Below, in pieces: positions 40,324 to 62,444 of a stretch of DNA of 64,000 nucleotides (position 1 is the stretch's first letter; each line of letters begins with the position of its first letter). The stretch comes from a virus (lineage: Duplodnaviria; Heunggongvirae; Uroviricota; Caudoviricetes), in IMG/VR virus record IMGVR_UViG_3300035680_000003. One strand, written 5' to 3'. The position numbers and the translations under genes were made by a program. The notes beneath the pieces are model-generated. The model was given only the letters and a program-made list of their open reading frames with translations. It ran no database searches and was not told the DNA's origin.

Positions 40324-40330
40324 CGAATTT

Positions 40331-42733: not shown

Positions 42734-42745
42734 TAGATTTTAAAT

Positions 42746-43895: not shown

Positions 43896-43960
43896 GATGT
43901 TTATCGTAAAATTTTGGAATATCTTTTATTTAACTCTCTGCAATTTTGTAATATAAATAT

Positions 43961-45925: not shown

Positions 45926-45971
45926 AAATCAGTTATTTTATCCTATAAATATAATGCTCATAGGAAACTAA

Positions 45972-46748: not shown

Positions 46749-47620
46749 TGAAATTTAATAGCAAACATCCAATTGTGGCTATGCCCATGAATGGAGTATC
46801 CAATGTTGACTTAGCTATTGCTGTAACTCAAGCGGGTGCTGTACCTAGTTTGTCAATCTTTAATTATTATGAAGGTGGAAAAGTAAATCTAAAGCATGTA
46901 GATGCCAGTTTAAAAAGGTTTACAGATGCAACCAGTTCTACAGAAATAATTTTAAGTATGCACTGGGAACATTTTATATGGACTCCTGTTATAGATGTTC
47001 TATTAGAAAATAATATAAAATTAGTTGAACTTTTTATTAGACCATCAGATCATCATTTGTGGCCTGAATTATCTAAACAGATCGACAATATGAAGGTACA
47101 CGGTATAGCTGTAATGTTTAAAACTTCTAATCGGCTACCTATGTCCTATTTTGATTCGATAGTATTGAAAGGTCCTCAGGCTGCTGGGAGATCATTCGGT
47201 AGTCTAGTATCATTAGAAGATCGATATGATGCTATGAAAGAACAAGTAGGATCAAGAATCATTCCAAGCGGTGGTATTGGCAGTCCTGAACAGGTAAAAT
47301 ATTTTATGGACAGAGAAGCATTAGCTGTGGGTATTGGCACACTACTTGCAGCATCTGAAGAAAGTTGTGTGTCAAGCGATACTAAACAAAAAATTATAGA
47401 GTCCACATCAAAAGATATCAAATTAATAGGTCCGTTAAATTGCAGAGGGCTGTTATTTTCTAGACTAGAAAATGACGACGATAACAATTCCAAATCTCTA
47501 TATGAGGGTATCAAGGGAACTAATTCCGGATGCATCTATGTAGGCAACGGAATAGACTATATAAACAAAATAATGCCAGTAAAAGATATAATAGAGTGGT
47601 TAGTTAAAGATGTTAATTAA
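46748..47620 (+). CDS. nitronate monooxygenase / FabK-like FMN TIM-barrel oxidoreductase
   Basis: PIVAMPMNGVSNVDLAIAVTQAGAV resembles the NMO/FabK N-terminus (PIIQAPMAGVS..LAAAVSNAGGLG); Gly-rich IPSGGIGSPEQV later. Confidence 0.5.
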   Translation: MKFNSKHPIVAMPMNGVSNVDLAIAVTQAGAVPSLSIFNYYEGGKVNLKHVDASLKRFTDATSSTEIILSMHWEHFIWTPVIDVLLENNIKLVELFIRPSDHHLWPELSKQIDNMKVHGIAVMFKTSNRLPMSYFDSIVLKGPQAAGRSFGSLVSLEDRYDAMKEQVGSRIIPSGGIGSPEQVKYFMDREALAVGIGTLLAASEESCVSSDTKQKIIESTSKDIKLIGPLNCRGLLFSRLENDDDNNSKSLYEGIKGTNSGCIYVGNGIDYINKIMPVKDIIEWLVKDVN

Positions 47621-48776
47621 TAAGTTACTGGGCTATTATACATGTGACGGTTTAGAATTTGAATCAAAAATTCAAGCATGTTTTCATTCTCTTAAAGTCA
47701 ACAAGCCAGTTGACTGGGTCTTTAATGATTTAGAATTTAGCATACACGACTGGACTAAAGAACCAGAAGAAACATTAGACCAATTATATGATAAACGAGT
47801 GAGAGATCTGCGAGCAAAATACGATTATCTTATTTTAAGTTACAGCGGCGGCGCTGATAGCCATCAAATTTTAATGAGTTTTATTAGACAAGGTATACAC
47901 TTAGATGAGCTGCTAATCAACACAATGGAAAAAGGTTGGAAACCTTATACTAGTTTAGATCCTAGAAATGTTTCTAGTTTGAATTCAGGGGCCGAGCATT
48001 ACCTACAAACTATTCCAAGACTAAAAGAAGTAGAGCAGTTTATTCCAAAAACAAAGATTACAATCTGTGATCTAACTGATCAAGTTAACGATTCATTATT
48101 GTCAGTAGGTGATGCAAGCTGGGTATTGCAAAAAAGAGAAGCATTGAATCCTATAGGAATTACTCGATTTAACTATGTATACTTTGATGAAGTTCGTAGA
48201 CTGTTTGATAAAGAGAAGAAGATAGGTATTATACTTGGAGTAGAAAAACCTAAAAGCATTATCCATGAAGGTCAATTTTGGATGAGATTCAATGATCGAT
48301 CAGCTAACATGGTTACAATTGTCGATCACATAAAAGATTACGACAACAGTGTTATTGAATATTTTTACTGGAGCCCTGAGTGTGTGCCATTATTAATCAA
48401 ACAAGGACATGTGATAAAAAGATGGCTAGAATTAAATCCTAATTATCAGCAATACTGGAACACTAAAACTTCTAGTTATGCTTCTGTAAGATTTTGGCAT
48501 GAGAGATTATTAAGAAAAGTTATGTATCCGACAACTTGGAATAATTCTTGGTTTCAAGTGCATAAAGCAACAAAAGATTGGTATAGCGAATTTGACAATT
48601 GGTTCATCGAAGGAAGCGTTAAAACAAAAGCCAATGTCATATGGCATGAGGGCATTGATTATGTTAGGAATTCTTTAACTCCATTTTTGAGATACGATTT
48701 AGAAACAAATCAACCAGACGGATTACAATCCTTTGTTAAACAATATTTAATTGGTAGAGTTGAAACACGGTCTTAA
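47610..48776 (+). CDS. PP-loop ATP pyrophosphatase superfamily protein (388 aa)
   Basis: LILSYSGGADSHQIL SGGxDS motif about 85 aa from the N-terminus. Confidence 0.5.
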   Translation: MLINKLLGYYTCDGLEFESKIQACFHSLKVNKPVDWVFNDLEFSIHDWTKEPEETLDQLYDKRVRDLRAKYDYLILSYSGGADSHQILMSFIRQGIHLDELLINTMEKGWKPYTSLDPRNVSSLNSGAEHYLQTIPRLKEVEQFIPKTKITICDLTDQVNDSLLSVGDASWVLQKREALNPIGITRFNYVYFDEVRRLFDKEKKIGIILGVEKPKSIIHEGQFWMRFNDRSANMVTIVDHIKDYDNSVIEYFYWSPECVPLLIKQGHVIKRWLELNPNYQQYWNTKTSSYASVRFWHERLLRKVMYPTTWNNSWFQVHKATKDWYSEFDNWFIEGSVKTKANVIWHEGIDYVRNSLTPFLRYDLETNQPDGLQSFVKQYLIGRVETRS

Positions 48777-49681
48777 TCTTTTGTTTTGATCTTATTTTCT
48801 AAAATAAATTTTCTAATATTGTCATTATAATTCAACGATTCTTTAATCTTAGATTTATCAGTATCTGATTTGAAAAATAATCCTATATCAGTAAGCCCTT
48901 GCTTATATTCTGCTGATTGAAATATTGTTTTTAGATCAGCTGTAATTTTACCTTTAGTATATTCATCCATAGTCTTAGGAACAATTACTGAAAGATAGCT
49001 TTGGAATGGGAACACTTCTTTATAAAAACTTTCCCATGTTGATGTTTTTAATCCAACAGCATGACTAGTTAATAATAATTTTAAATTTTCGTGATTGGTG
49101 TAGGCTTTAACTGTCGGGTAGTTGCCAAACATACAATCAACATGCCCGCCAACTAAATCTAATACAGACTTATTTCCCCCTTGAGCATAGGGAACGACGA
49201 TATGATTGTTTTTAGTTTTTGATAGTAATACTTCAGTGGCGATATGTTCGGAAGACCCATAACCTCCAACAGCAAAGGACAATGATTTTTTAGTATTGAT
49301 AAAGTCTTGATAGGATGTTATTCCTGTTTTAGCATTACAGAGTAATGCAGAGGGCATAATTCCTATAGTGGCCAGCACTTCTAAATCAATTTTGTGATCG
49401 TAATTTAAGTCGTTAAAATTGATAGGGTTGGTAACAAAAACTTGAACTACAGTAGCCAGTAGCATAGTTTTTTCATTCATTAAATGACCCATAGCAATTT
49501 TGCCAGATGCTCCTGGCCGATTGACTACTACATATTTTTTATCTAAGTTTTTAGCGATATACCGTGTTGTGATATCGCTCACACCACCGGGAGCGTGCAT
49601 AACTGTAAACTCTAATGATTGAGCTACTGCAACTTTTGAAAAAAATAAAATTAATAAAAGAAAAAATTTGTTGATTAGCAT
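48773..49681 (-). CDS. secreted TctC/Bug-family (tripartite tricarboxylate transporter-type) solute-binding protein
   Basis: signal peptide LLLILFFSKVAVAQS; HAPGGVSDITTRYIAKNL...VVVNRPGASGKIA matches the TctC PGGxxD...NxPGAxG pattern. Confidence 0.5.
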   Translation of the reverse strand: MLINKFFLLLILFFSKVAVAQSLEFTVMHAPGGVSDITTRYIAKNLDKKYVVVNRPGASGKIAMGHLMNEKTMLLATVVQVFVTNPINFNDLNYDHKIDLEVLATIGIMPSALLCNAKTGITSYQDFINTKKSLSFAVGGYGSSEHIATEVLLSKTKNNHIVVPYAQGGNKSVLDLVGGHVDCMFGNYPTVKAYTNHENLKLLLTSHAVGLKTSTWESFYKEVFPFQSYLSVIVPKTMDEYTKGKITADLKTIFQSAEYKQGLTDIGLFFKSDTDKSKIKESLNYNDNIRKFILENKIKTKD

Positions 49682-49699
49682 GATATATAAATATTCTTT

Positions 49700-50266
49700 A
49701 TGTACTTCTCATACTTATCTCTTCCAAGATTACCTAAAGAATTTTTTGCTCAATGTTTGGAAAATGTAAAATACATTGGTGTAGATCCTAGACTAGAAAA
49801 TGTTAATAGTTATCGAGGGCCAATGAATCGAGCTACGTATCTGCCCGAAGAATGTAATACATGGATTATTAGAAATATTGTATTTCCGTTATATGGAAGT
49901 ATTCCTTCAACTCTAAAATTAAATTTATTAAATGTAACTACATACCAAAAGTTAAAACCTCAAGAAGAGACATGGGGTACACACCCTAAACATATCGACA
50001 AAGGCAGAAACTGGGCATTAAATTATTATTTTACCACTGGTGGAAGTAATACTACCGTTAGGTGGTACGAAGATAATGTTGTGGCAGCAGAAACACCACC
50101 TATAGAAATTAATAGATGGTGTTTATTAAAAGTTAATCAACTACACGATGTTAGAGGAATTGAAGAAGGTCAAATTCGATATTTTTTAACATTGAATATT
50201 TCTTCTGAAAATATAGATAATTTTAAATCAGTAATTGATCAAAATACAGTGATTGAAAAAAAATGA
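49700..50266 (+). CDS. 2OG-Fe(II) oxygenase-fold protein, paralog 8
   Basis: HPKHIDKGRN ... NQLHDVRGIEEGQIRY. Confidence 0.4.
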   Translation: MYFSYLSLPRLPKEFFAQCLENVKYIGVDPRLENVNSYRGPMNRATYLPEECNTWIIRNIVFPLYGSIPSTLKLNLLNVTTYQKLKPQEETWGTHPKHIDKGRNWALNYYFTTGGSNTTVRWYEDNVVAAETPPIEINRWCLLKVNQLHDVRGIEEGQIRYFLTLNISSENIDNFKSVIDQNTVIEKK

Positions 50267-51795
50267 CAGTAGATTGTTTGTTACTATATGGTAATCATTT
50301 ATTACCTATGTCTAAATATGCGGGAACATTTCGAATTGCTAGCGAGTTAAGAAATGCAGGCTATACTGTTCAGTGTATTGATATGACAGCGTATGAAGAC
50401 AACCGTGAAGAACTCATCGATACAATAAAGATGTTTATAGGTAATAATACATTATGGGTGGGAATTAGTACAACCTTTTTGCGTCATGTATTTGGATATC
50501 CCTATTTTCGTACGATAGATTCATTTAATGTAAAATCTACAACTATCCCAAATATTGATAAAGAAATTTTAAATTTTATTAAAACCGTTAAGGATATTAA
50601 TCCAAACGTAAAATTTATTGCCGGTGGCTCGAAAAGATTTATGATCGAGAAATACGGTTTTAAAGTTTTTACAAAAAATAATGATACTGAAATTATTGAG
50701 TTTACAGATTATTGTGCAAAAAAATCTAAAAAAATACCAGTAAGTTTTTTAGAATCACTGATTGAAGGTTCAGAATTTCAACAGTTTACAACAAGCCAAA
50801 ATATCTTTACTAAGAACGATATTGTCGAATCGTCAGATACCCTTCCTATTGAAGTTAGTAGAGGTTGTATTTTTAAATGTAAATTTTGTTCATTTCCACT
50901 TAATGGTAAAAAGAAAGGCGAATGGGTTAAACGTTCTAATGTATTGTATGAAGAGTTTATAAAGAATTATGAGTTGCATGGAGTAACAGAATACAGTTTT
51001 TCCGATGACACATACAATGATAGTGAAGAAAAAGTTAAAAGATTGTATGACGAAGTGTATAGTAGGCTACCATTTAAATTAAACTTTACTACATATTTGA
51101 GACTTGATTTAATGATAAAATTTCCCGACACAGTGAAATACTTACAAGAGTCAGGTTTAAAATCAGCAGTCTTTGGTATAGAAACAATAAATCATAATTC
51201 AGGTAAGGCTATTGGCAAAGGTTTAAATCCCATTGAACAATTTCAGTTTATTGAAGAAATTAAAAAAAATGAATTTAAAGAGATACTAACTCGTTCTGGA
51301 TTTATATTAGGGTTGCCAAAAGACAGACACGACGAGATTAATATCCTAGAAGAATTCTTATTTTCAGAAAAGAATAAATTAGATGACTTTAGTGTAGAAC
51401 CTTTGATTATATTTCCTCCAAAATTTGATCAAACAAAATTTAAAGATTTTTCTGAATTTGATATAGAATATGAAAAATATGGATATAAGATTTATGAAAA
51501 CATCGAAACATCTTCTATTACTGAAATTAGATGGACCAACGATTATATCGGAATGACTTTTGATCAAGTAGCTAAAGCTGCAAAAAAAATAAATGTAAGA
51601 AAATATTTCGATGGTAGATTCAAGTGCGGTGGATTTGGTTACAATTGGCATAGGTCTCTCGGAATTCCAGCAGATGATCTAGTGGCACTGAGTCGGAATG
51701 AAATATATACAAAGTATAACGTCAAACAACTGCTAAAAACAAAAAAAGATAATTATCGATCATTAATACTTAATGTAATGAAAAATAATGAATAA
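50263..51795 (+). CDS. B12-binding-domain radical SAM enzyme (class B-like)
   Basis: CxxxCxxC at about aa 205 (VSRGCIFKCKFCSFP) after a Rossmann-like N-terminal domain; 510 aa; paralog at 62481..63983. Confidence 0.7.
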   Translation: MTVDCLLLYGNHLLPMSKYAGTFRIASELRNAGYTVQCIDMTAYEDNREELIDTIKMFIGNNTLWVGISTTFLRHVFGYPYFRTIDSFNVKSTTIPNIDKEILNFIKTVKDINPNVKFIAGGSKRFMIEKYGFKVFTKNNDTEIIEFTDYCAKKSKKIPVSFLESLIEGSEFQQFTTSQNIFTKNDIVESSDTLPIEVSRGCIFKCKFCSFPLNGKKKGEWVKRSNVLYEEFIKNYELHGVTEYSFSDDTYNDSEEKVKRLYDEVYSRLPFKLNFTTYLRLDLMIKFPDTVKYLQESGLKSAVFGIETINHNSGKAIGKGLNPIEQFQFIEEIKKNEFKEILTRSGFILGLPKDRHDEINILEEFLFSEKNKLDDFSVEPLIIFPPKFDQTKFKDFSEFDIEYEKYGYKIYENIETSSITEIRWTNDYIGMTFDQVAKAAKKINVRKYFDGRFKCGGFGYNWHRSLGIPADDLVALSRNEIYTKYNVKQLLKTKKDNYRSLILNVMKNNE

Positions 51796-51844
51796 TTATC
51801 TAGGTAGAGTTAAATTAACATTTTTACAAAATTAGAACTAACAA

Positions 51845-52765
51845 ATGGAAAGACATAATCAATGGATGAGCTACAGTTTTGATGCTATAGAATATGGCAA
51901 AAAAACTGATTCAAATTCTATTTTTAAAATTCATTTTAATAAAAAAATAGATAAAAATCTCCCTTCTTATAGAGATGCATTATTTAATAATGCCCGTATT
52001 ATGCGAGACTCGTATAATGAACCATTTGATGTAATGTTGTCAGGCGGAGTTGATAGCGAAATGGTTGTGCGAACATTTCATGCTGTGGGAATTAAACACA
52101 ATACATTTATTTTTAGATTAGAAAATGATTATAACATTCGAGATGTTAATTATGCCATAGCTGTTTGTAAAGAACTAAACATTAATTATAAAATAATAGA
52201 TTTTAATTTACAAAAATTCTTCGAAAATGATGCACTTGATTTATTTCAAAAGACACTAATTCCAAGATCAGGAAGAATAGTGAGACTTGCGTGGTTTAAC
52301 TATCTTGATAATATTCCAGTTTTTTGTGACGGTGAACCCTACTGGCGCAGGGATGCAAATAAAGATTTTAGTAAAAAATCTACGTGGAGATTAATTTTAA
52401 ACGAAGACGGATACTCGTGTTCTACCTATGCTAAATCAATTGGTAGAGTAGCGATTGGGGATTGGTATGAATATACCCCCGAATTGTTATTGTCATACAA
52501 CGAATTGCCGTTAGTTAAAAAATTACTCAACGACGAAATCTCAGGGAAGATTAGTTCCTGGAGTAGCAGGTCTGCTATTCACAGAGATATCTGGCCTACT
52601 GTACAGGATAAAATAAAATTAGCAGGATACGAAGGTGCAGACGGCAATCCTGTATTGAGTCGTCCGGATTTTATGAATCACTTTCAGGTAACGTATATGA
52701 ATCAAGTGTCCAATACTCATTACGAATATACTGAAGAAGAACTAAGAAATTTAATCCTTAATTAG
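51845..52765 (+). CDS. PP-loop ATP pyrophosphatase superfamily protein (306 aa)
   Basis: FDVMLSGGVDSEMVV motif; paralog of 56385..57314 (N-termini MERHNQWMSYSFDAI and MRRFRDWMTYSFDGI). Confidence 0.55.
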   Translation: MERHNQWMSYSFDAIEYGKKTDSNSIFKIHFNKKIDKNLPSYRDALFNNARIMRDSYNEPFDVMLSGGVDSEMVVRTFHAVGIKHNTFIFRLENDYNIRDVNYAIAVCKELNINYKIIDFNLQKFFENDALDLFQKTLIPRSGRIVRLAWFNYLDNIPVFCDGEPYWRRDANKDFSKKSTWRLILNEDGYSCSTYAKSIGRVAIGDWYEYTPELLLSYNELPLVKKLLNDEISGKISSWSSRSAIHRDIWPTVQDKIKLAGYEGADGNPVLSRPDFMNHFQVTYMNQVSNTHYEYTEEELRNLILN

Positions 52766-53590
52766 ATTTTCTCGGACCCAACGTCCCCAATGTATACAAT
52801 GATACTCGTATTTTGATAGTGATTCGGTAACAGGAAAGAATTTTGTTTTTATCTTTTCGATCGCAGCAACATCTTCCCTAAACACAGTTTCTAATGTTTC
52901 AAATTCGATACGATCATTATGTGGAACATCAGGGGCATAATAGAATTGTGTAATCCATTCGAATTTCCATTCTATATTTTTATCTGCAGGAACAATAGTG
53001 TTTACTGACAGGCATCCTTTCTTATGCTCGACAAAGGTGTAGGGGTATATATAGAGTGACCACCAACCTGGAGAATGTTCTTGGAATATCCATCCATCTC
53101 CTTGATCCATAACAACATTATCTAAATCAATTTGTTCAGAGAGTCTCGGATGAATTCCATCCTTTTGTACATGTAAATAATCTGCTTCAGCATCCATGAG
53201 CCATAACCAGCTTCCCTCGCTTTTACCTTGAAGAGAATGACTATATTCTAGCGTTGTTTCTTTTTCCAGATCATCGACCCATTGATGGTCTGGTTCGATA
53301 AAATCTTTAAATACTAACCCTGATCGACCAACAGTTGCAGTCCCACAATTTAATTTTTTAGAATTATTAATTGGTGTGCCATTTGCATCCCATTGAAATC
53401 CGTGGAACTTACATGTAATGCTGTTGATATGTGTTCCTGGATCAGCTAGTGGATACATTCTGTGGGGACAAAATCTGTGAAATAAATTTACTATATTACC
53501 TTGTTTATTTAGAATATATTCAGAAACTGCAAAGTTCTTGTCCTGCAATGCACTGAGATGAGCAAAAATTTTAGGAGATTTAATAAACAT
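52751..53590 (-). CDS. Rieske [2Fe-2S] domain protein (Rieske oxygenase-like)
   Basis: CPH-x16-CKFH (FCPHRMYPLADPGTHINSITCKFHGFQWD) is the Rieske CxH...CxxH signature. Confidence 0.55.
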   Translation of the reverse strand: MFIKSPKIFAHLSALQDKNFAVSEYILNKQGNIVNLFHRFCPHRMYPLADPGTHINSITCKFHGFQWDANGTPINNSKKLNCGTATVGRSGLVFKDFIEPDHQWVDDLEKETTLEYSHSLQGKSEGSWLWLMDAEADYLHVQKDGIHPRLSEQIDLDNVVMDQGDGWIFQEHSPGWWSLYIYPYTFVEHKKGCLSVNTIVPADKNIEWKFEWITQFYYAPDVPHNDRIEFETLETVFREDVAAIEKIKTKFFPVTESLSKYEYHCIHWGRWVRENLIKD

Positions 53591-53622
53591 TGTAAGAGTA
53601 ATGTGCGTATATAAATAGTTGT

Positions 53623-54210
53623 ATGTATGCTATTTACTTAAACGACATAGAAAGATTTATTGCGATTGAAAAAGATCTTTGGATTGCACATGCATCGGCA
53701 AAATTGCTATCTTCAAAATTATCTATCTCTATATGTGATATCGGAAATGCATTGTCTGTAACTAACTATAACTGTTTTCAATGGACATTGTCAAGTGTAG
53801 ACTTGCCCGCCTCTACACAATATCCAAAATTAGTTGTACCAAAAGATTCTAAATTAGAATTTGTCGGTGATCCTATTAATACAGATATGGAAATGTTAAA
53901 ATTGCATCAGCAATTTTGTTTGTTAGTATTAAAGGTTGTTTTTGCGGCAAAAATGACCGACATTGAATTAAATTCAGGAGATCGAAAATATTTTCAATCT
54001 TTACTTAAAAACGACACTTTACTATCTGCGTCGGACGAGTCCGGAATTCCTGGAGGGTTTTTACATACAATAGAAAGAATTCTTTATTTGAGTTCAAATG
54101 TAACGCACGTTATGTCTCATATTGAATTAATGTTTAATAATTCAGAGAGTATATTTCCTAGAAATCTTGCACAATATAAATTACTATTTTACAAATACTT
54201 AAATGCATAA
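53623..54210 (+). CDS. hypothetical protein
   Basis: 195-aa ORF inside the accessory cluster. Confidence 0.35.
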   Translation: MYAIYLNDIERFIAIEKDLWIAHASAKLLSSKLSISICDIGNALSVTNYNCFQWTLSSVDLPASTQYPKLVVPKDSKLEFVGDPINTDMEMLKLHQQFCLLVLKVVFAAKMTDIELNSGDRKYFQSLLKNDTLLSASDESGIPGGFLHTIERILYLSSNVTHVMSHIELMFNNSESIFPRNLAQYKLLFYKYLNA

Positions 54211-55495
54211 ATTTTATTACAAAACCTTTGATCCAAACCTTAGAAGTTTTTCTAAATTGCTCAGTAACAATGTAACTGATTTACCACCAGGCGGCAGATT
54301 CTATTTTAATCTTGCAAGATCAATGCGTATGAGCGGTGAGAATTACCTATTTAGAGATGGGGAGTGGAGTGATCCTTTTAAAACTGTGGTCCACCCTACC
54401 TTTGCTATGCCATCATATACGTCAAATTTTAATTTAAATTTTTCAGAAGTATCGGACTTAAGGTCTCTCGATATTAAAAAAATCATCAACGATACTGATC
54501 GGTCGATAGTAATTCAATGGTCTGGAGGAATTGACAGTACTGTAGCACTTGTATCTTTATTAAAAAATCTGTCACATTCTGAATTGTCAAATGTAATTAT
54601 TGCAATGAGTAGCGACAGCCTTTTAGAAAATCCTAATTTTTATAATAAGTTTATTAAAGATAAATTCAAAATTATTGATTCTGAAAATATGTTGTTTAAC
54701 GATTATAAAGAAAAATACAATGCATATTGCATCATGGGAGACACAGGCGATTGTCTATTTGGTTCAGAATTAGGAAATAAATTATACCCTAAGATGAAAT
54801 TTATACAAGATAACACTGGTCATCTTTATAACAAAATTAGTTCACCTGATGTACATTATTCAATCTATAGGGATATCATTGTACAGTATTTTAATGATAA
54901 TCTTCAAACTTCAATACTTTCTTTAAAACAACAAGGTGTAGTTAACAGTAGTATTAGCGAATTTATTTCAGGGGACGAAACGTTTGGAGAACTATTCTAC
55001 GAAAAAATTGTTAAGAATATAGAAACATGCAGTGTTCCTATATACAGTCTACATGACTTTTTCTGGTGGACAATCTTTAGTGGAAGATATATATTCTGTG
55101 CCCTAAGAGGACCTAGTGTGTTTAGCATCGGCGCCAATAAAGAGGCATTAATTAATGATTGTCTTATTCAATGGTTTAATACCGACGAATATCAACTATG
55201 GTCTATGAATAATAATAACAATGGGGAAAAGTTATCTGGGCCTATACAAGGCCTTGGAAAAACTGCTGCAAAAAAATACATTTACGATTTTGATAAAAAC
55301 GAATGGTATTTTACGCATAAGATGAAAGTCGTGTCGTCACCAAATATTCTTAGAAGAAACTGGCGTAAACATTTTGCAGATTTTGATCCTATGCTAGGTG
55401 TTGATACAAATTACAATTTGATTAAAATAGGACCAGCGACAGTTAACAATTATGTCATTAATAGACTAATGAACTACAAAATAGATTGGTGTTAA
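54203..55495 (+). CDS. PP-loop ATP pyrophosphatase superfamily protein (430 aa)
   Basis: SIVIQWSGGIDSTVALVSL motif at about aa 105. Confidence 0.5.
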   Translation: MHKFYYKTFDPNLRSFSKLLSNNVTDLPPGGRFYFNLARSMRMSGENYLFRDGEWSDPFKTVVHPTFAMPSYTSNFNLNFSEVSDLRSLDIKKIINDTDRSIVIQWSGGIDSTVALVSLLKNLSHSELSNVIIAMSSDSLLENPNFYNKFIKDKFKIIDSENMLFNDYKEKYNAYCIMGDTGDCLFGSELGNKLYPKMKFIQDNTGHLYNKISSPDVHYSIYRDIIVQYFNDNLQTSILSLKQQGVVNSSISEFISGDETFGELFYEKIVKNIETCSVPIYSLHDFFWWTIFSGRYIFCALRGPSVFSIGANKEALINDCLIQWFNTDEYQLWSMNNNNNGEKLSGPIQGLGKTAAKKYIYDFDKNEWYFTHKMKVVSSPNILRRNWRKHFADFDPMLGVDTNYNLIKIGPATVNNYVINRLMNYKIDWC

Positions 55496-56388
55496 TTTTG
55501 AGTTATTTCTTTCTTATATCGTTCTCTGAAAGACTTTAATAAAGAAATACTTGAATGGTAATGCAATTTTGAATCTTGATTATAAAAGACAGGACTTATA
55601 AAGTCTCCTAATCCAAACAACTTATTCTTGCCTAAATTCATTGTAGCTTGATGAAATATAGCGGATATATTTTCTTTAGTTTCTTTGGGCATTTCTTTTG
55701 ATGCCATAGTGAAATGAAAGATATATGGAGCTGTAATTTTTTGCTCAGTTAACGTTTTAATATTTGGGAGATCTGGGTGTCGTTCTGTGCAACTCATTCC
55801 GATTATTTGTAAGTTAGGATTCTTTGCCTTGTACTGATTAAATGCAGATACACGCTCAACAATAAAGTTAATACTATTATTGTCAGAAGCCATGTGGAGC
55901 AGTGCATCTGCATTGCTTCGATACACAATATAGCGAACAGGTATATTATATTTTTTTCCTAGTTCTAGACCTAGTAGATGAGTAGCACCACCTATAGCAG
56001 GGCCGCCTATGGTAAGTTCTTTAGGAAGCTCATTTTCTTTAAAGTTAGTAATAATTGCCCAGCAGGCACTTCCGTGACTAAACACTGGTTCTAATTTATT
56101 TAGGTCAATTAGTCCTCTACTTTCAGCTTCGACTACACTATTGGTAATAGTCACAACACGATTTTTTGGTTGTTCTAATGCCTCTCGAACACCTATACTT
56201 TCAAAGCCACCAGCTTTAAATTCTGTAACAAATTTATATTTGTTTTGTATTTTATTTGCTTCATCTAACACAGCGAATATTTGAGGAGTCATACTTTGCG
56301 TAGGTCCTTGAGCATTTATTACTACAATAGTTTCTTGTGCCTGTGCTAGATTTAAAAATAACAATAAACTTACAATTATAAACTTCAT
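55492..56388 (-). CDS. secreted TctC/Bug-family solute-binding protein (second copy)
   Basis: signal IIVSLLLFLNLAQAQ; paralog of 48773..49681 (shared GGATHLLGLELGKKY region). Confidence 0.45.
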   Translation of the reverse strand: MKFIIVSLLLFLNLAQAQETIVVINAQGPTQSMTPQIFAVLDEANKIQNKYKFVTEFKAGGFESIGVREALEQPKNRVVTITNSVVEAESRGLIDLNKLEPVFSHGSACWAIITNFKENELPKELTIGGPAIGGATHLLGLELGKKYNIPVRYIVYRSNADALLHMASDNNSINFIVERVSAFNQYKAKNPNLQIIGMSCTERHPDLPNIKTLTEQKITAPYIFHFTMASKEMPKETKENISAIFHQATMNLGKNKLFGLGDFISPVFYNQDSKLHYHSSISLLKSFRERYKKEITQN

Positions 56389-57314
56389 GGGATTCCTTTA
56401 AATTTTTTGTTTACTTCTTCAAGTGAATACGTAAAACTAAGATTGGTTAAGTCTGACATTTGATTTTCCATATAAAAATCTTTAAAAAATTTAGGAAGAC
56501 TTTCTAAAGGTGTTCCAGTCGGACCTTCGTAACCAATTAATTTTGATTTATTTTTTATGTCTGGCCATATCTGTTGATGTAAAGATATTCTACTAGAGAG
56601 GGTGCTTTTTTTGCCTACATTTTTATCATCTAGCAAATCTTTTATAAGATCATTTTGATGGTAACTCATTGTAATGTAGGGAGTGTATAGGTACCATTCT
56701 CCTATAATCTCTCTATTATGATGGTGTGATGTTAACGACATAAAAAGCTGGCGCTCAGTAAGATACAGAGACCAATTAGATTTTTTTGTATAATCACTGA
56801 GCAAGTCTCGTTTCCAATAAGGAGATCCTTCACCAAAAACAGGTATGTTATCTAAATAATCTAACCATTTAATTTTTGATAAGGACGGACTATGCGGCAC
56901 TAACGTTTTTTCAAATATGTCTTTAGCATCGTGTTCATAAAATTTAGATAAGTTAAAATCAATAATTTTATAAGGTATATTTAATGTTTCACATATCTGT
57001 ATTGAAGAATTAATATCTCGAATATTTAAATTATCTTCGTACCTAAAAATAAATGTATTATGTGTTATACCTAAATCTTTAAAAGTGCGAACTATCACTT
57101 CGCTATCTATGCCACCGGATAATAAAACATCAAACGGCTCTGAAAAAGAATCTCGCATAATACTTGCATTTTGTATCAATGCATCATGATACGACATTGG
57201 CATAATGTCGTTAGAGATATTAAAATGAATGTCCAGGAAAGATCTTCTAGAAGATTTAGGAGAATTTAAAATTCCGTCAAAAGAATACGTCATCCAATCT
57301 CTAAATCTTCTCAT
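56385..57314 (-). CDS. PP-loop ATP pyrophosphatase superfamily protein (309 aa)
   Basis: FDVLLSGGIDSEVIV motif; close paralog of 51845..52765. Confidence 0.55.
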   Translation of the reverse strand: MRRFRDWMTYSFDGILNSPKSSRRSFLDIHFNISNDIMPMSYHDALIQNASIMRDSFSEPFDVLLSGGIDSEVIVRTFKDLGITHNTFIFRYEDNLNIRDINSSIQICETLNIPYKIIDFNLSKFYEHDAKDIFEKTLVPHSPSLSKIKWLDYLDNIPVFGEGSPYWKRDLLSDYTKKSNWSLYLTERQLFMSLTSHHHNREIIGEWYLYTPYITMSYHQNDLIKDLLDDKNVGKKSTLSSRISLHQQIWPDIKNKSKLIGYEGPTGTPLESLPKFFKDFYMENQMSDLTNLSFTYSLEEVNKKFKGIP

Positions 57315-57320
57315 AGAAAA

Positions 57321-57653
57321 TTAAAGTTCTTCTTTTTCTACCGGGTCAGAATAAATGCCTACAGAAGTGTTATATGCATCGAGAGCGGCAGTTCTTTCAA
57401 TCGTTACACTACGACTTGCATAGTCCTCGTAGAGTTCTTTACTTTCCCATATGAATTCTACTTCTAATGTCAGCTCGTCCGGTTCGGATAACGTTCTGAT
57501 TTTTCTCCCATGAAACTCTCCGAACATCATTTCTAACATTCGGGTATTTAAATCTTCATCTAAGTTTAGATTAAAATACCATTCTATCGTTTCATTCGGT
57601 CTATGAAATCTGCTTAAAACTCTATATGCCATGCTAATTCTCCAGTGATACAA
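57321..57653 (-). CDS. hypothetical protein
   Basis: 110-aa ORF. Confidence 0.35.
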   Translation of the reverse strand: MYHWRISMAYRVLSRFHRPNETIEWYFNLNLDEDLNTRMLEMMFGEFHGRKIRTLSEPDELTLEVEFIWESKELYEDYASRSVTIERTAALDAYNTSVGIYSDPVEKEEL

Positions 57654-57715
57654 TTATTTATTGTTTTAGATAAGAGATCTTATATTTTGATGTGCTAGCA
57701 ATATACTTTTAGAAT

Positions 57716-58498
57716 TTACCATATTATAGCATAGTCTTTAAATTTGGTAGCCGACATAACTATCATATCTCTAGTTCTCTGTCGAACTATAGTTTGATAA
57801 TTTTTTTTAACTGTTATAAATGCTGCAATTCTAATACCTGAAACATTTATTGATGGTGCATGTACTGCTCTAAAATTGTTTAGATAATATGCCATGTGCG
57901 GATCGGTCATCTTACAATTAAAAATTTCTTCTTGCAATCTTCTATCCCCGCCGGTTAACGGTACAGTAATACCTTCCTGTCTGTAGTAGGGCAGTTTTGT
58001 TTTTCGTAATAATAATGGATTATCATTGTAGTGTTCACACTCGAGGTAGAATCTAAAACCGGTTGGATCAACATCATTGTGCCAAAATGAAACACCTTTG
58101 ACGGATTTTCTTACTGGCAAGAATATTGCACCACTAAGTTCATGTCGGCGTATTTTAAAAGCTTCATAGCAATATACTGCTAGTTCGGGAAATTCTTTAT
58201 CAAAATTATTTTGCCAGACGCCGTCCCAAGCACCCCAAACTAAATCCCAAGGGTATTCTTCTCCAATAATATCTTCAGCATTATCTGATTTAGACTTACA
58301 GGATTGCGGGTAGGCACTTTGCGCCCAAGATAAAAATTTTGTAATGTCTACATCCGGTCTCTTTGGGATGTCTAAGGGAGTATAACAAATATCAATAGGT
58401 TCCATACTTATTTTTTTTAATCTTGTTTGCTTATAACGGATATGCACAATATTTAAAAGAGCATTCATTGCTAAGTTATTTATTTTTAAAAATAACAA
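57716..58498 (-). CDS. 2OG-Fe(II) oxygenase-fold protein, paralog 9
   Basis: SFWHNDVD (HxD) ... RAVHAPSINVSGIR (H-x10-R). Confidence 0.4.
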   Translation of the reverse strand: MLFLKINNLAMNALLNIVHIRYKQTRLKKISMEPIDICYTPLDIPKRPDVDITKFLSWAQSAYPQSCKSKSDNAEDIIGEEYPWDLVWGAWDGVWQNNFDKEFPELAVYCYEAFKIRRHELSGAIFLPVRKSVKGVSFWHNDVDPTGFRFYLECEHYNDNPLLLRKTKLPYYRQEGITVPLTGGDRRLQEEIFNCKMTDPHMAYYLNNFRAVHAPSINVSGIRIAAFITVKKNYQTIVRQRTRDMIVMSATKFKDYAIIW

Positions 58499-58534
58499 TA
58501 TGTCCGCATTGAATGGCTATACAATTAGATTGCC

Positions 58535-59061: not shown

Positions 59062-59167
<106 letters not shown>

Positions 59168-59308
59168 TTATCTTGTGAATTTTCTTACTAGTTTTAGCCA
59201 GTAGTATTTAACTCCGCGGAATGATGGAGGCCAATCCATTCCGAAACTAGGAGTTATTTCTTTTGGGACATTACCGTATGCTTTGTCAAGCGTTTCTTTT
59301 ACTTTCAT
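59168..59308 (-). CDS. small ORF (46 aa) with strong Shine-Dalgarno, abutting tRNA-Gly
   Basis: hand translation MKVKETLDKAYGNVPKEITPSFGMDWPPSFRGVKYYWLKLVRKFTR; AAAGGAG sits 6 nt upstream of the ATG. Confidence 0.3.
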   Translation of the reverse strand: MKVKETLDKAYGNVPKEITPSFGMDWPPSFRGVKYYWLKLVRKFTR

Positions 59309-59700
59309 GTCTACTCCTTTAGTTAACAGGTTCTCATTTTATGTGCTACCACTACACCAACACCGCTGACCAAGCAGTGCCCAGGATTCGAACCTGGCCC
59401 GTCTTTTTTACAGAAAGTTTAATAAGATTGCTGAAAAGAACCTAAATGGTCAAACCATTTGTTATATTGTAGATTTTATCAGTTTATTGTTCTACAACCT
59501 CACGACGCCATGGCAGCTATACTGCCGCACTGCTCGATACCACCTCCCCTTTCAGGGCGTCCGGAATAACAAAATAAAACAGGATACCTTTTTCGATGGC
59601 TTGGAAGCCATTGCTCTACCATTGAGCGATCTACGCAAAAGCGTGGAGTTGGAATCGAACCAACATGTCATTTAAGACGTTGCTGCATGTATCCTAAAAT

Positions 59701-59775
59701 TGGATGCGGGCCCAGGATTTGAACCTGGGATGCTCCGAGCTTATGAGACTGGAGTGGTGGCCGCCCTGCCCGCTA
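59701..59775 (-). tRNA. tRNA-like element with CAT anticodon loop (CTCATAA) and A1xA72 mismatch; D-arm non-canonical
   Basis: T-arm CCAGG-TTCAAAT-CCTGG, 3' end GCCCGCA-T-CCA, 5' AGCGGGC; D and anticodon stems pair poorly. Confidence 0.3.
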
Positions 59776-59841
59776 TATTCTTTGCCACACTACTTATCCT
59801 ATTATACACCGTGTGCCATGGTGAATTCTTTCTTGTATTTA

Positions 59842-59919
59842 TGGTCGGAATAGTAGGATTCGAACCTACGACCCTCGCGTCCCAAACGCGATGCGCTAAC
59901 CAGACTGCGCTACATTCCG
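59842..59919 (-). tRNA. tRNA-Pro (anticodon TGG), CCA encoded
   Basis: D-arm GCGC-AGTCTGGTTA-GCGC, anticodon arm TCGCG-TTTGGGA-CGCGA, T-arm GTAGG-TTCGAAT-CCTAC. Confidence 0.7.
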
Positions 59920-59926
59920 ATTTAAA

Positions 59927-60002
59927 TGGTACCTGGTGTCAGACTCGAACTGACATCGTTCTCCGTGTAAAGGAGATGCATAACCTCTCTGCGCAACCAG
60001 GC
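59927..60002 (-). tRNA. tRNA-Val (anticodon TAC), CCA encoded
   Basis: acceptor GCCTGGT/ACCAGGT, anticodon arm TCTCC-TTTACAC-GGAGA, T-arm GTCAG-TTCGAGT-CTGAC. Confidence 0.7.
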
Positions 60003-60009
60003 AAAAATA

Positions 60010-60083
60010 TGGAGCGGGGTAAGAGAATCGAACTCTCAGCATGAGCTTGGAAGGCTCAGGTATTACCACTATACGAACCCCGC
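60010..60083 (-). tRNA. tRNA-Gly (anticodon TCC), CCA encoded
   Basis: acceptor GCGGGGT/ACCCCGC, D-arm GTAT-AGTGGTA-ATAC, anticodon arm TGAGC-CTTCCAA-GCTCA. Confidence 0.75.
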
Positions 60084-60595
60084 ATACTTTATTAAAACAT
60101 ACTCCCAACAAGTGTCTTATGCTTGTTGTACCGTGTGCTAGGCACATTTCCTTTGCAAGGCTCCCCCGGGTTTGGGCTACGTAGACAAAGAATATATTTT
60201 AATAAAGTTACCTTATTGAAACACACTGTTGCGGCCGCAGGATACCGAGTGATGTAGTGAGTCGGAATCAAACCTTCCCAATCTACACAGTGCTCTCCAC
60301 AATGCGTTTCAATAAAGTGTCTAGCTACTCACACCACATGAGCCCTAAACTGGTCTGTTGCTACGTCCATAACATTTTCTTCTTCTGGAAAGGCTGTTAA
60401 TCCTCACCCTAGGCAGTTTCCAGTATCCCTTAAATAGGGACTGTGAGGTCAGGTCCTAGTGTACCCTCTGGTCTATCGTTACAGAGACGCTATTTCGTTA
60501 CGTAGAAATAGTAAGACGGGTTTTCAACAGGTTAATACTAGTTTAATGACCTAGCAGTCGCCATATTTTTGATAGCTGTAATTAACCTAAAAACT

Positions 60596-60670
60596 TGGTG
60601 CCCCGTGTCTGAATCGAACAGACGATCTCCGCTTTACAAGAGCGGCGCATTGCCACTGTGCTAACAGGGC
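60596..60670 (-). tRNA. tRNA-Thr (anticodon TGT), CCA encoded
   Basis: acceptor GCCCTGT/ACGGGGC, anticodon arm CCGCT-CTTGTAA-AGCGG, T-arm GTCTG-TTCGATT-CAGAC. Confidence 0.7.
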
Positions 60671-60679
60671 GCAATATAT

Positions 60680-60946
60680 TTAACCGCCCTGAGTGGAATC
60701 ACTTACATTCTTTGACTGTTCATCTGCTAGATATGATGCTAGCTTTGATTGAAAGTCAGCTTCTGTTAGACCATGCCAACCGACACACTTACCAGTCGGA
60801 CTACGACCACAACCGCATTTTCCAATCTCATCTGCATTTTCTTGTACTCTTACTTGCATATCTTTCTTTCCAAAAATAGCGTCATAGTTGTTAGCAAATG
60901 TATTCTGGCTAACGCTAAACGGACGAGCTCTTGAACCTTTTGACAT
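60680..60946 (-). CDS. Cys-rich hypothetical protein
   Basis: 88 aa with a GKCGCGRSPTGKCVGWHG cluster; lies inside the tRNA block. Confidence 0.35.
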   Translation of the reverse strand: MSKGSRARPFSVSQNTFANNYDAIFGKKDMQVRVQENADEIGKCGCGRSPTGKCVGWHGLTEADFQSKLASYLADEQSKNVSDSTQGG

Positions 60947-61176
60947 TACCGAACCTTTTTAAGATACTCTCTACCAATTTTACCTGCTTCAATTTCTTGC
61001 AAGGCAGTAATAGTGGCACTGTTGGTTCCGCTAACTTGTTTAGCATGTCCACGTCGCAGTTCGCGAACTCGAGCACTGGCAATCAGAACTAGATCAAATC
61101 TATTGCCCACGGCTTCGACACATTTGTCTGTGTCGATGTTCTGTGGAGAAAAGGGAACTTTAATAACTTTAATCAT
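60946..61176 (-). CDS. RNA polymerase omega subunit (RpoZ)-like protein
   Basis: VGNRFDLVLIASARVRELRRG...ITALQEIEAGKI parallels the E. coli RpoZ core (IGNRFDLVLVAARRARQM...VIALREIEEGLI). Confidence 0.55.
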   Translation of the reverse strand: MIKVIKVPFSPQNIDTDKCVEAVGNRFDLVLIASARVRELRRGHAKQVSGTNSATITALQEIEAGKIGREYLKKVR

Positions 61177-61203
61177 CTATTACTTTCGTTGGTTTAAAAA
61201 ATT

Positions 61204-61279
61204 TGGCTCCCCGGGCAAGGATCGAACTTGCGACCAACAGATTAACAGTCTGCTGCTACTACCGCTGAGCTACCAGGGA
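61204..61279 (-). tRNA. tRNA-Asn (anticodon GTT), CCA encoded
   Basis: acceptor TCCCTGG/CCGGGGA, anticodon arm GCAGA-CTGTTAA-TCTGT, T-arm GCAAG-TTCGATC-CTTGC. Confidence 0.75.
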
Positions 61280-61481
61280 ATATACTTTACTTTGCGTCTC
61301 GCTCTTTAGAGGATCGCGGAACAATGTTCGCAGCCACTTGAGCATCTATCATTGCATTTTTGAATCCATGACGGTCTTGATCGTTCTTAAAACTCATCAA
61401 TGCTATCATAGTCTTTGCTCTTTTACTCAACCTAAAAGTTGAACCTGTTCTTGCTCTCATTTTATTCCTTAAAAAATTTTA

Positions 61482-61556
61482 TGGTGGACCGAGGGAGGAT
61501 CGAACTCCCACCCGAGGCTTGCAAAGCCACTGTGCTCCCATTATCACTATCAGCCC
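61482..61556 (-). tRNA. tRNA-Ala (anticodon TGC) with G3-U70 identity pair, CCA encoded
   Basis: acceptor GGGCTGA/TCGGTCC includes G3-T70, anticodon loop TTTGCAA, T-arm GGGAG-TTCGATC-CTCCC. Confidence 0.7.
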
Positions 61557-61637
61557 ATATTAAAACACATTTAAACAGTCCTTCAACGCTAGTCGCTATC
61601 TCCCCTACTAGAGGGCGGATCTGTATGTGTTTTAATA

Positions 61638-61721
61638 TGGTGCCCCAGGTCGGACTCGAACCGACACGCCTCTCGGCACTGGCTTCTAAGACCAGCGTGG
61701 CTACCATTACACCACCGGGGC
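61638..61721 (-). tRNA. tRNA-Leu (anticodon TAG), type II, CCA encoded
   Basis: anticodon arm CTGGT-CTTAGAA-GCCAG, 13-nt variable arm, T-arm GTCGG-TTCGAGT-CCGAC. Confidence 0.75.
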
Positions 61722-61775
61722 AAATTTTTATTATACAGGATATTTATAATCCTGTCAACCTCTATTTTAATAACT

Positions 61776-61852
61776 TGGTGCGCCCACTAGGACTTGAACC
61801 TAGGACCAAAGGATTATGAGTCCTCTGCTCTGACCAACTGAGCTATAGGCGC
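61776..61852 (-). tRNA. tRNA-Met (anticodon CAT; elongator or lysidine-Ile not distinguishable), CCA encoded
   Basis: acceptor GCGCCTA/TGGGCGC, D-arm GCTC-AGTTGGTCA-GAGC, anticodon arm GAGGA-CTCATAA-TCCTT. Confidence 0.8.
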
Positions 61853-61861
61853 ATCAATCAT

Positions 61862-61953
61862 TGGTACCAGCGGAGGGGATCGAACCCTCTCAAGAACGCT
61901 AATCTGGCGCTAAAAGGTCTATAAGGCCTCTCTGACTACCAAGTCTCGCTGGC
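61862..61953 (-). tRNA. type II (long variable arm) tRNA, anticodon not resolved by eye (loop region GGCCTTATAGACC)
   Basis: 92 nt, acceptor GCCAGCG/CGCTGGT, T-arm GAGGG-TTCGATC-CCCTC, CCA encoded; the anticodon stem cannot be paired cleanly. Confidence 0.45.
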
Positions 61954-61962
61954 ATGTATGTT

Positions 61963-62052
61963 TGGCGGTGCGACTGAGACTCGAACTCAGAACCCGGATT
62001 ACGCCGAGCGACGGATTAGCAATCCGCTCTAATACCATTATAGGACCGCACC
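61963..62052 (-). tRNA. tRNA-Ser (anticodon GCT), type II, CCA encoded
   Basis: anticodon arm GCGGA-TTGCTAA-TCCGT, about 20-nt variable arm, T-arm CTGAG-TTCGAGT-CTCAG. Confidence 0.7.
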
Positions 62053-62180
62053 AAATTTCCATTAGTTGAATCCTCTACACTATATGCCTATCCTCAACAC
62101 GCTTTACTCGAGTTGACGGTTTATTGAATAGGTTACATAACGTATGATCAAACCTCTGTGCTTGCAAAGGATTCAATTAA

Positions 62181-62264
62181 TGGTGCGAGAGACGGGACTC
62201 GAACCCGTATGCCTTTCGGCGGCAGATTTTAAGTCTGCTGAGTATACCATTTCTCCACTCTCGC
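62181..62264 (-). tRNA. tRNA-Leu (anticodon TAA), type II, CCA encoded
   Basis: acceptor GCGAGAG/CTCTCGC, anticodon arm GCAGA-CTTAAAA-TCTGC, 13-nt variable arm. Confidence 0.8.
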
Positions 62265-62322
62265 AAAATACTAACTTTACATTTTTAAAGAACAGTGCTG
62301 TTATTAGCAGCGTATGTATAAA

Positions 62323-62351
62323 TTATACTGTCTTTCTCAGTGTGTGTCAAC
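62323..62351 (-). promoter_or_regulatory. perfect sigma70 consensus promoter (TTGACA-17-TATAAT) heading the tRNA cluster
   Basis: minus strand TTGACAcacactgagaaagacagTATAAT, between tRNA-Thr(GGT) and tRNA-Leu(TAA). Confidence 0.6.
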
Positions 62352-62370
62352 AGGTATTTAAAAATATTTT

Positions 62371-62444
62371 TGGTGCTCAAGCAAAGAATCGAACTTTGAT
62401 TGCTGTCGTACCAAGACAGTGTACTACCATTGTACTACAAGAGC
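62371..62444 (-). tRNA. tRNA-Thr (anticodon GGT) with two TxT mismatches in the acceptor stem (possible pseudo-tRNA)
   Basis: D-arm GTAC-AATGGTA-GTAC, anticodon arm CTGTC-TTGGTAC-GACAG, T-arm CAAAG-TTCGATT-CTTTG, acceptor GCTCTTG/CTTGAGC. Confidence 0.45.

Follow-up and report, generated by a model that had tools for sequence, protein, structure and literature searches.

The omega subunit (RpoZ) is the least understood subunit of bacterial RNA polymerase (RNAP), and roles as an assembly chaperone, as part of ppGpp site 1, in sigma competition and in processivity have been proposed for it. Phages are known to reach the host RNAP through add-on factors, covalent modification, and sigma factors of their own. 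Their RNAP-binding factors include AsiA, MotA, gp33, gp55, RpbA, and Alc of T4, Gp2 of T7, P7 of Xp10, and gp39 and gp76 of P23-45. The replacement of a core subunit by a phage is not described in the literature that we searched. Here we analyzed a stretch of 64,000 nucleotides of a tailed phage of the Caudoviricetes (IMG/VR record IMGVR_UViG_3300035680_000003), referred to below as the window. An initial annotation of this DNA had noted an RpoZ-like open reading frame (ORF) of 76 amino acids (aa) on its minus strand, within a cluster of tRNA genes.

The product of this ORF, the window omega, and its phage relatives share with AsiA, gp55, gp33, Gp2, P7, gp39, and similar factors the presumed goal of an early phage product that alters the host RNAP, and with the T4 factors a T4-like background. 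However, factors of the AsiA, Gp2, or P7 type are phage-invented or sigma-like add-ons without a counterpart among the core subunits, whereas the phage omega presumably substitutes for one. As a homologue of a core subunit, it would thus differ in kind from the known takeover factors. Large phages also carry copies of host expression parts, such as tRNA sets, transfer-messenger RNA (tmRNA), sigma factors, and ribosomal proteins. The phage omega is likewise an auxiliary copy in large phages, and it adjoins near-complete tRNA sets and, in relatives, tmRNA. Neither PHROGs nor INPHARED nor the literature that we searched yielded a homologue of an RNAP core subunit among the host parts carried by phages. 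Nucleocytoplasmic large DNA viruses also encode members of the omega/Rpb6 superfamily, as in the RNAP subunits of poxviruses and African swine fever virus. These viruses encode a whole polymerase, whereas no phage beta or beta-prime was seen for the phage omega. Together with the host sigma-70 signals described below, this leads us to expect the host enzyme as its partner.

The window omega and its phage-only family

The ORF lies where the initial annotation had placed it, with the length and the tRNA embedding given there:

60946..61176, minus strand: omega (RpoZ-like) coding sequence, ATG start, 76 aa, core at residues 16-75

Its translation is MIKVIKVPFSPQNIDTDKCVEAVGNRFDLVLIASARVRELRRGHAKQVSGTNSATITALQEIEAGKIGREYLKKVR, in which residues 1-19, MIKVIKVPFSPQNIDTDKC, form an N-terminal segment specific to the clade of the window. 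The protein matched the Pfam family RNA_pol_Rpb6 (PF01192) with 51.2 bits (E=1.3e-13, gathering cutoff 26), residues 18-67 aligning with model positions 1-51 of 53, and the NCBIfam rpoZ equivalog TIGR00690 with 36.9 bits (cutoff 23.6), while the narrower NCBIfam model NF001579 stayed below its cutoff (20 vs 58). In a phmmer search against PDB sequences, about 20 distinct RNAP omega chains were matched. Among them was that of E. coli (about 1e-7), of which residues 6-64 aligned to 16-72 of the window protein. The AlphaFold2 model, calculated from a 59-sequence family alignment, reached a mean predicted local distance difference test (pLDDT) of 84.2 and contains four helices (16-23, 26-41, 54-63, and 69-75). 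All 50 of the PDB matches listed by Foldseek for this model were omega chains of RNAP complexes, the top one being 6pss_K (template modelling score 0.71, root-mean-square deviation 1.8 A, 39% identity). These profile, PDB, and fold matches cover the entire conserved omega core, which indicates that the similarity is not that of one generic helix. The core similarity described in the initial annotation is therefore borne out.

The window omega shares with bacterial RpoZ of the proteobacterial type the helical fold and the core GNRFDLVLxA..R.R...AL.EIE.G, and it is as long as residues 1-68 of E. coli omega, the part of that protein that is structured. Seventeen residues are common to phage and cellular omegas at a level of at least 80%, namely G14, N15, R16, F17, D18, L19, V20, L21, A23, R26, R28, A50, L51, E53, I54, E55, and G57 in E. 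coli numbering. All of them are found in the window omega, and they are at least 92% conserved among 184 phage sequences. Judged by these sequence and model comparisons, the ORF is a true RpoZ/omega homologue with an intact core, and the word "mimic" used in the initial annotation is not appropriate for it. In addition, the ratio of nonsynonymous to synonymous substitution rates (dN/dS, Nei-Gojobori method) was 0.055-0.2 for the core codons of homologues inside the window's clade, with a median of 0.19 over 482 unsaturated pairs. The ORF is a real gene under purifying selection.

Relatives of the window omega formed at least 473 clusters (90% identity) in a large protein collection. Among the 120 clusters listed, almost all proteins were 54-110 aa long, and those with names had been labelled "RNA polymerase subunit omega" by pipelines. 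An omega annotation thus already exists through automated pipelines, while a description or analysis of the phage family was not found in the searched literature. In IMG/VR, 189 contigs carried relatives, of which 80 were fetched (4-524 kb, omegas 52-100% identical to that of the window), and the tRNA and promoter statistics given here rest on 59 distinct viral loci with about 920 kb. The cellular comparison set consisted of gammaproteobacterial omegas, since a scan for GNRFDLVL[IV] in one genome per prokaryotic species gave only Gammaproteobacteria among the matches listed. These cellular omegas were 37-50% identical to the window omega. In the core alignment, the median identity was 63% between phage sequences and 46% between phage and bacterium, with a maximum of 60% among the sampled cellular omegas listed. 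The nearest neighbour of each phage omega by distance was another phage omega, and a two-cluster distance partition separated 165 phage from 57 bacterial omegas with no mixing in 90 of 100 bootstraps. By sequence distance, the phage omegas are a large phage-only clade, cleanly apart from the sampled cellular omegas.

The phage omegas also differ from cellular RpoZ in context and in detail. In Gammaproteobacteria, rpoZ lies between gmk and spoT, whereas the window omega sits in a phage tRNA array, and distant phage omegas on contigs of 271-361 kb neighbour homing endonucleases as well as the same accessory phage genes, never gmk or spoT. Conserved positions specific to the family are E39 (Q29 in E. 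coli), R42, T57, and the C-terminal G68-R69-E-Y71-L-K73-K, so that a basic GREYLKK end stands in place of the acidic C-terminal tail. Two deletions of one residue each affect loop regions, and K45, which is otherwise invariant, is lost together with R52.

The initial annotation had called a phage omega unusual, and the database searches agree with this. The family is absent from PHROGs (best E=0.31), no true member was found by tblastn among 50,697 GenBank phage records, and a full-text literature search of incomplete coverage returned no report of a phage-encoded omega. The tblastn matches in 8 GenBank phage records, all about 41% identical, were rejected as phage omegas, as they are host-type rpoZ judging from the one record inspected, a mislabelled bacterial contig with gmk-rpoZ-spoT. 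Two GenBank entries of 240 kb under the name "Acinetobacter phage MD-2021a" (CAKLQH020000003.1 and CAKLQF020000004.1) are mislabelled bacterial chromosome contigs that contain type IV pilus genes, ispH, gmk-rpoZ-spoT, and bfr, and this mislabelling could misdirect searches for a phage omega.

The N-terminus of omega is of particular interest because residues 2-5 of E. coli omega coordinate the phosphates of ppGpp bound at site 1, and RNAP with an omega lacking these residues loses ppGpp binding at this site (Kd >100 uM) (PMC7676912). Site 1 acts mainly on elongation and pausing (2026 preprint, PMC13192712). In our alignment, M1-A2-R3-V4-T5 of E. coli corresponds to P11-Q12-N13-I14-D15 of the window omega, after a 10-residue N-terminal extension that is modelled with low confidence (pLDDT 57). 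The ppGpp-contact positions are thus changed from R3 to N13 and from T5 to D15. The MAR N-terminus was present in 79 of 80 sampled cellular omegas, and many phage omegas likewise start with MAR(I/L)TS, whereas in the window's clade this start is replaced by a longer segment ending in SPQNIDTDKC. The site-1 feature M-A-R-(V/I)-T is accordingly absent from the window omega and present in other phage clades. Among 167 unique phage omega sequences, the N-termini were typed as follows:

MAR type, MAR(I/L)TS...: 26 of 167
Extended type, M(S/T)ESRARYTS...: 21 of 167
MSNSRNTS type, MSNSRNTS...: about 8 of 167
DTDKC type (that of the window), ...(S)PQN(I/V)DT(D/E)KC...: 98 of 167, a count biased by the query

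The remaining sequences comprise 18 that were unclassified, the MSNSRNTS group included, and 4 that were missed by the core-motif pattern. The exchange of Arg for Asn and of Thr for Asp, together with a buried N-terminus, should weaken ppGpp binding in the window's clade only. Since many phage omegas keep MAR(I/L)TS, blindness to ppGpp is not a family-wide purpose and is at most a clade-specific refinement. The suggestion in the initial annotation that the phage protein alters ppGpp responsiveness thus agrees with the replaced contact residues 2-5 in the window's clade, while as a purpose of the whole family it fails on the MAR N-termini kept elsewhere.

Locus architecture, expression signals, and the coupled neighbour

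The omega gene is surrounded by the following features:

59094..62444, minus strand: tRNA array that hosts omega, with 13 predicted tRNA genes within the window
60596..60670, minus strand: tRNA-Thr(UGU), beginning 9 nt past the orf88 stop and closing the omega-orf88 bicistron
60680..60946, minus strand: orf88, its ATG overlapping the omega stop (TAATG)
61183..61187, minus strand: Shine-Dalgarno-like GAAAG, 6 nt 5' of the omega ATG
61204..61279, minus strand: tRNA-Asn(GUU), its 3' end 27 nt 5' of the omega start codon
61730..61758, minus strand: perfect sigma-70 promoter TTGACA-17-TATAAT, heading the likely omega transcription unit
62322..62350, minus strand: second perfect sigma-70 consensus promoter, farther 5' in the tRNA array

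The likely transcription unit from the promoter at 61758 contains tRNA-Leu, tRNA-Ala, orf57, tRNA-Asn, omega, orf88, and tRNA-Thr, and no minus-strand terminator-like site was predicted in the window between the upstream promoters and omega. This arrangement is found across the family. All of the 855 tRNA genes in the 59 loci are on the omega strand, and a Shine-Dalgarno-like motif (AAAGGA or GAAAG) precedes the omega ATG family-wide. The upstream tRNA ends a median of 31 nt before the omega ATG (within 100 nt in 30 of 55 cases), and the next tRNA follows the omega stop at a median of 7 nt (26 of 45 within 100 nt). A coding cistron punctuated by tRNAs in this manner is an unusual mRNA architecture for bacteria and phages.

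Perfect TTGACA-N16-18-TATAAT promoters occur 157 times on the omega strand and never on the opposite strand, against a chance expectation of 0.16 per strand in 920 kb, and in some relatives (L025 and L069) such a promoter lies immediately 5' of omega. The perfect sigma-70 promoters upstream lead us to read omega as an early-type gene transcribed by the unmodified host sigma-70 holoenzyme, and by its sequence context it looks like an early-type cistron within a tRNA precursor transcript. The window has six perfect promoters, all on the minus strand (62350, 61758, 39506, 37705, 36395, and 2516). The sequence after the -10 element is AT-rich in all six, and four of them share the start (A/T)TATA(C/T)(A/T)TA(C/T).

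Several features of the RNA genes in relatives may be mentioned here. ARAGORN predicted tRNA-Ile(UAU) genes of unusual length (90-93 nt) in related phage tRNA arrays, at 5489-5581 in L006, 5157-5246 in L007, 10854-10944 in L009, 6515-6606 in L024, 4717-4806 in L055, and 3428-3519 in L065, as well as a few tRNA-Pro genes of 90 nt. These predictions may reflect introns or extra arms. A tmRNA is located 1.3-3.5 kb downstream of omega in three omega-bearing relatives, L023, L026 (11728-12061), and L029 (9557-9978), and its tag is ANDEQFALAA or ANDSQFALAA.

The overlap between the omega stop and the ATG of orf88 indicates translational coupling of the two genes. The orf88 product combines an N-terminal KGSRxRPFSVS...DAIFGKK module with a CDGSH-like Cys/His motif, CGCGRSPTGKCVGWH. 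It is one of a very large group of small phage proteins without a name, comprising 1109 clusters, in which the N-terminal module KGS..RP.S(V) ... F.K is invariant. In the window's clade, C44-x-C46-x2-S-x4-C54-x-G-W-H58 is invariant and resembles the 3Cys-1His iron-sulfur motif of CDGSH proteins, and the homologue P0210 carries a canonical CDGSH repeat as a fused part. Pfam zf-CDGSH gave no match in orf88 itself, only in this fused homologue, and the structure prediction of orf88 was unusable (pLDDT 57). The gene is also present in L001-L009, L069, and others. It adjoins omega only in the window's clade and is hundreds to thousands of bases away elsewhere, and in other clades the N-terminal module alone occurs 0.3-4.4 kb upstream of omega.

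The linked alarmone hydrolase, the accessory island, and the source genome

In bacteria, rpoZ and spoT share an operon, and the phage omega gene is likewise linked to a gene for a SpoT-type HD hydrolase, so that in both cases the two products touch the (p)ppGpp system. The initial annotation had pointed to a SpoT-hydrolase-like gene in the same genome, and we located it at 37114-37650 as part of a block with these features:

37114..37650, minus strand: small alarmone hydrolase candidate (HD_4, Mesh1/SpoT-type, 178 aa) with an LHDVVEDT motif
37677..37705, minus strand: perfect sigma-70 promoter immediately before the HD_4 gene, with the Shine-Dalgarno sequence AAGGAG after it
37941-38486, minus strand: metallophosphoesterase (phrog_547), part of the ancestral omega-linked block
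38522-38986, minus strand: AAA_33 polynucleotide-kinase-like protein, part of the ancestral omega-linked block
38987-39454, minus strand: DSPc-type phosphatase, part of the ancestral omega-linked block
~39500..58500, mostly plus-strand genes: low-GC (0.30-0.34) accessory island of about 19 kb, delimited by GC content and comparison with the relative L002

The HD_4 domain scored 57.5 bits against a gathering cutoff of 27.2. The best solved relatives of the protein are Drosophila and human Mesh1 (3nqw, 6e-14) and the hydrolase domains of Rel, RelA, and SpoT, with LHDVVEDT aligned. With its HD...ED catalytic motif, it is a candidate (p)ppGpp or (p)ppApp 3'-pyrophosphohydrolase. A phmmer search with SpoT and Mesh1 sequences gave no window match; this search is insensitive, since Pfam does find the HD_4 gene. 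Small alarmone hydrolases have been reported in phages, for example in the Pseudomonas phage Adele, and their substrate preference is not readable from sequence (PMC12846349). The phage enzyme is a single-domain small alarmone hydrolase, whereas bacterial SpoT is long.

In relatives, omega is followed by a co-oriented block in the order (orf88/orf84), DSPc phosphatase, AAA_33 protein, metallophosphoesterase, HD_4 hydrolase, and orf97. In 11 of the 80 loci that were fetched, omega is followed on its own strand by the hydrolase gene at a distance of 2.2-7.1 kb, and all three main N-terminal types are represented among these 11. In the window, the hydrolase block is at 36824-39454 and the hydrolase is 24 kb from omega. 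The accessory island is missing from L002, whose omega is 100% identical to that of the window and in which omega and the block are contiguous. The gap of 24 kb is thus attributable to insertion of the island, and the contiguous block in relatives indicates that omega and the alarmone hydrolase are ancestral neighbours. Judging from gene order, the linkage may be an echo of the bacterial rpoZ-spoT operon, although it is looser in the phages (2-7 kb with genes in between, and 24 kb in the window).

The phosphatase, kinase-like protein, and phosphoesterase form a conserved trio whose place near the tRNA array gives it the look of a module for nucleotide signalling or RNA-end repair. The protein orf181, which is the most frequent neighbour of omega, was considered as an RNAP-related protein and rejected, as it is a metallophosphoesterase (phrog_547; PDB 1xm7). 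PADLOC gave no match for omega, orf88, or the linked block. The island encodes two fatty-acid desaturases, an NMO-like oxidoreductase, a TctC-family solute receptor, a 510-aa radical-SAM protein, and a Rieske protein that was assigned by comparison with the relative L162.

The window also encodes rIIA, rIIB, baseplate-wedge, and long-tail-fibre proteins, and the source genome is that of a T4-like phage of jumbo size. Proteins identical to the window omega occur on 72 contigs, the longest of 376 kb, and the gene order of the window recurs on a JGI contig of 240 kb. In a megablast of the omega region against GenBank phages, only tRNA-sized matches were obtained and no close phage relative was found. 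Neither the window (64 kb) nor the flanks of 20 kb inspected in relatives showed a beta-like or beta-prime-like ORF, in genomes of at least 240 kb; the largest ORFs of the window code for tail fibres, rIIA, and radical-SAM proteins. The radical-SAM proteins are of about 500 aa, one at 62481-63983 on the minus strand, directly flanking the tRNA array, and one at 50263-51795 on the plus strand. The former had no PHROG match, while Pfam Radical_SAM was recorded for its counterpart in L162. Other accessory genes code for a dCMP deaminase, an SPFH protein, and glycosyltransferases. Host-like genes code for ClpP (14202-14786), a Bax1-I family membrane protein (20910-21596), a D-Ala-D-Ala carboxypeptidase (22311-23144), GTP cyclohydrolase I (25074-25772), and a PTPS/QueD-like protein (13595-14101), and the last two possibly belong to a deazaguanine DNA modification pathway. 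The proteobacterial type of the omega core, the MAR motif, the tmRNA tags ANDxQFALAA of relatives, and the TctC-family gene are the only hints about the host.

Possible roles of the phage omega

We consider it somewhat more probable than the alternatives taken together (roughly 55%) that the phage omega occupies the omega site of the host RNAP. It would be expressed early by the unmodified host sigma-70 RNAP within a long tRNA precursor transcript, from which the omega-orf88 mRNA would presumably be freed by tRNA end-processing. The protein might then enter newly assembled or omega-free RNAP, or exchange with host omega, and bind host beta-prime through the retained omega core. At the level of the family, RNAP kept saturated with omega would favour the primary-sigma holoenzyme and a processive, termination-resistant enzyme. 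It has been reported that omega favours the primary-sigma holoenzyme (PMC3985657), and that loss of omega decreases processivity and makes RNAP more sensitive to termination (PMC13192885). Phages that use dozens of sigma-70 consensus promoters, transcribe long tRNA arrays that are not translated, and infect slow-growing, alarmone-rich hosts might profit from such an effect. In the window's clade, RNAP with an omega in which A2-R3-V4-T5 is replaced by Q-N-I-D should bind ppGpp poorly at site 1, which, like the Mesh1/SpoT-type alarmone hydrolase inherited along with omega, would lessen the influence of ppGpp.

A broader version of this proposal is that a widespread lineage of freshwater jumbo T4-like phages gains control of host transcription in part through the swap of an RNAP core subunit, in that an omega produced within minutes, with site 1 kept (MAR type) or abolished (DTDKC type), and the hydrolase together would produce an alarmone-blind, highly processive RNAP pool. 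This is possible, with the odds against it, and we regard it as tentative. Several points weigh against a substitution of host omega. Omega is stably bound in assembled RNAP, and as it is dispensable in several bacteria, the effect of a phage copy could be subtle. The 26 MAR-type and 21 Extended-type sequences among the 167 phage omegas do not share the altered contact residues of the window's clade. The nearest sampled cellular omega shares no more than 60% identity with phage omegas and 43-50% with that of the window, which makes the fit to the host beta-prime presumptive, and a closer cellular donor lineage may exist beyond the Gammaproteobacteria sampled by one motif. Finally, the genome has 240 kb or more, of which the window covers 64 kb, so that a phage-encoded multisubunit RNAP could lie outside it.

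Other functions are conceivable for a protein that still binds beta-prime. The phage omega might bind free or assembled beta-prime with its conserved core and act as a dominant-negative decoy or an adapter whose phage-specific surfaces, namely the basic GREYLKK helix at the C-terminus, the altered loop, and the new N-terminus, disable or re-address RNAP, either by blocking the docking of host regulators or defence factors on omega or by offering a handle for a phage activator. The conserved non-core positions E39, R42, T57, G68, R69, Y71, and K73 are family-specific and argue for a function beyond just supplying omega, and the loss of K45, R52, and the acidic tail points in the same direction. 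Omega is reported to be a docking site for GafA, a regulator of the Rhodobacter gene transfer agent, which provides a precedent (PMC9638019). The translational coupling of omega to a conserved small Cys/His protein in the window's clade would also fit an adapter. However, no partner was identified, orf88 is adjacent only in that clade, and no PADLOC or anti-defence signal was obtained; moreover, the omega region depends on host sigma-70 RNAP, so outright early inhibition would be self-defeating. We therefore judge a decoy or adapter role to be rather unlikely. A role away from RNAP, for example one in which the small helical protein serves tRNA precursors or their processing machinery as a chaperone or by binding RNA, has less in its favour and seems unlikely. 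The very tight and conserved physical tie to tRNA genes, the basic C-terminus, and neighbours that resemble RNA-end or nucleotide enzymes (the AAA_33 polynucleotide-kinase-like protein, the phosphatases, the metallophosphoesterase, and the HD hydrolase) would suit it. However, no RNA-binding domain signature was found, and the invariant residues are those that define omega/Rpb6, as expected if the interface with beta-prime is still under selection.

Some jumbo phages encode multisubunit RNAPs of their own, and the omega genes are found in jumbo genomes of 240-524 kb of which a quarter or less was inspected, so that the protein might be an omega/Rpb6-like subunit of a phage-encoded RNAP, as in giant eukaryotic viruses. 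We find this quite improbable, since the 64 kb window has no beta-like or beta-prime-like ORF, the T4-like genome (rIIA/rIIB) is saturated with host-type sigma-70 consensus promoters, the core is nearest to proteobacterial omega among the sampled proteins, and many members keep MAR. To our knowledge, the known phage multisubunit RNAPs also lack omega. The tRNA regions of large phages are prone to recombination and gather small accessory ORFs and homing endonucleases, and a gene as short as omega is easily carried, which might suggest a recently captured host rpoZ fragment that is a functionless passenger. This is effectively refuted by the dN/dS, identity, and clustering results, namely strong purifying selection, hundreds of diverged copies in a phage-only clade, a conserved position and ribosome-binding site, and the lack of any cellular sequence more than 60% identical among those listed.

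Whatever its role, the phage omega family offers natural variants that can be tested in reconstituted RNAP, with distinct N-termini exactly at the end that binds ppGpp, and these variants could help to dissect the long-debated function of omega. The co-inheritance of omega with an alarmone hydrolase also suggests that the phages counter the stringent response in a coordinated way. If the subunit swap proposed above is true, starved hosts would contain an RNAP pool able to transcribe phage genes and long tRNA arrays that are not translated, and a virus would for the first time be seen to replace a core subunit of a cellular RNAP.

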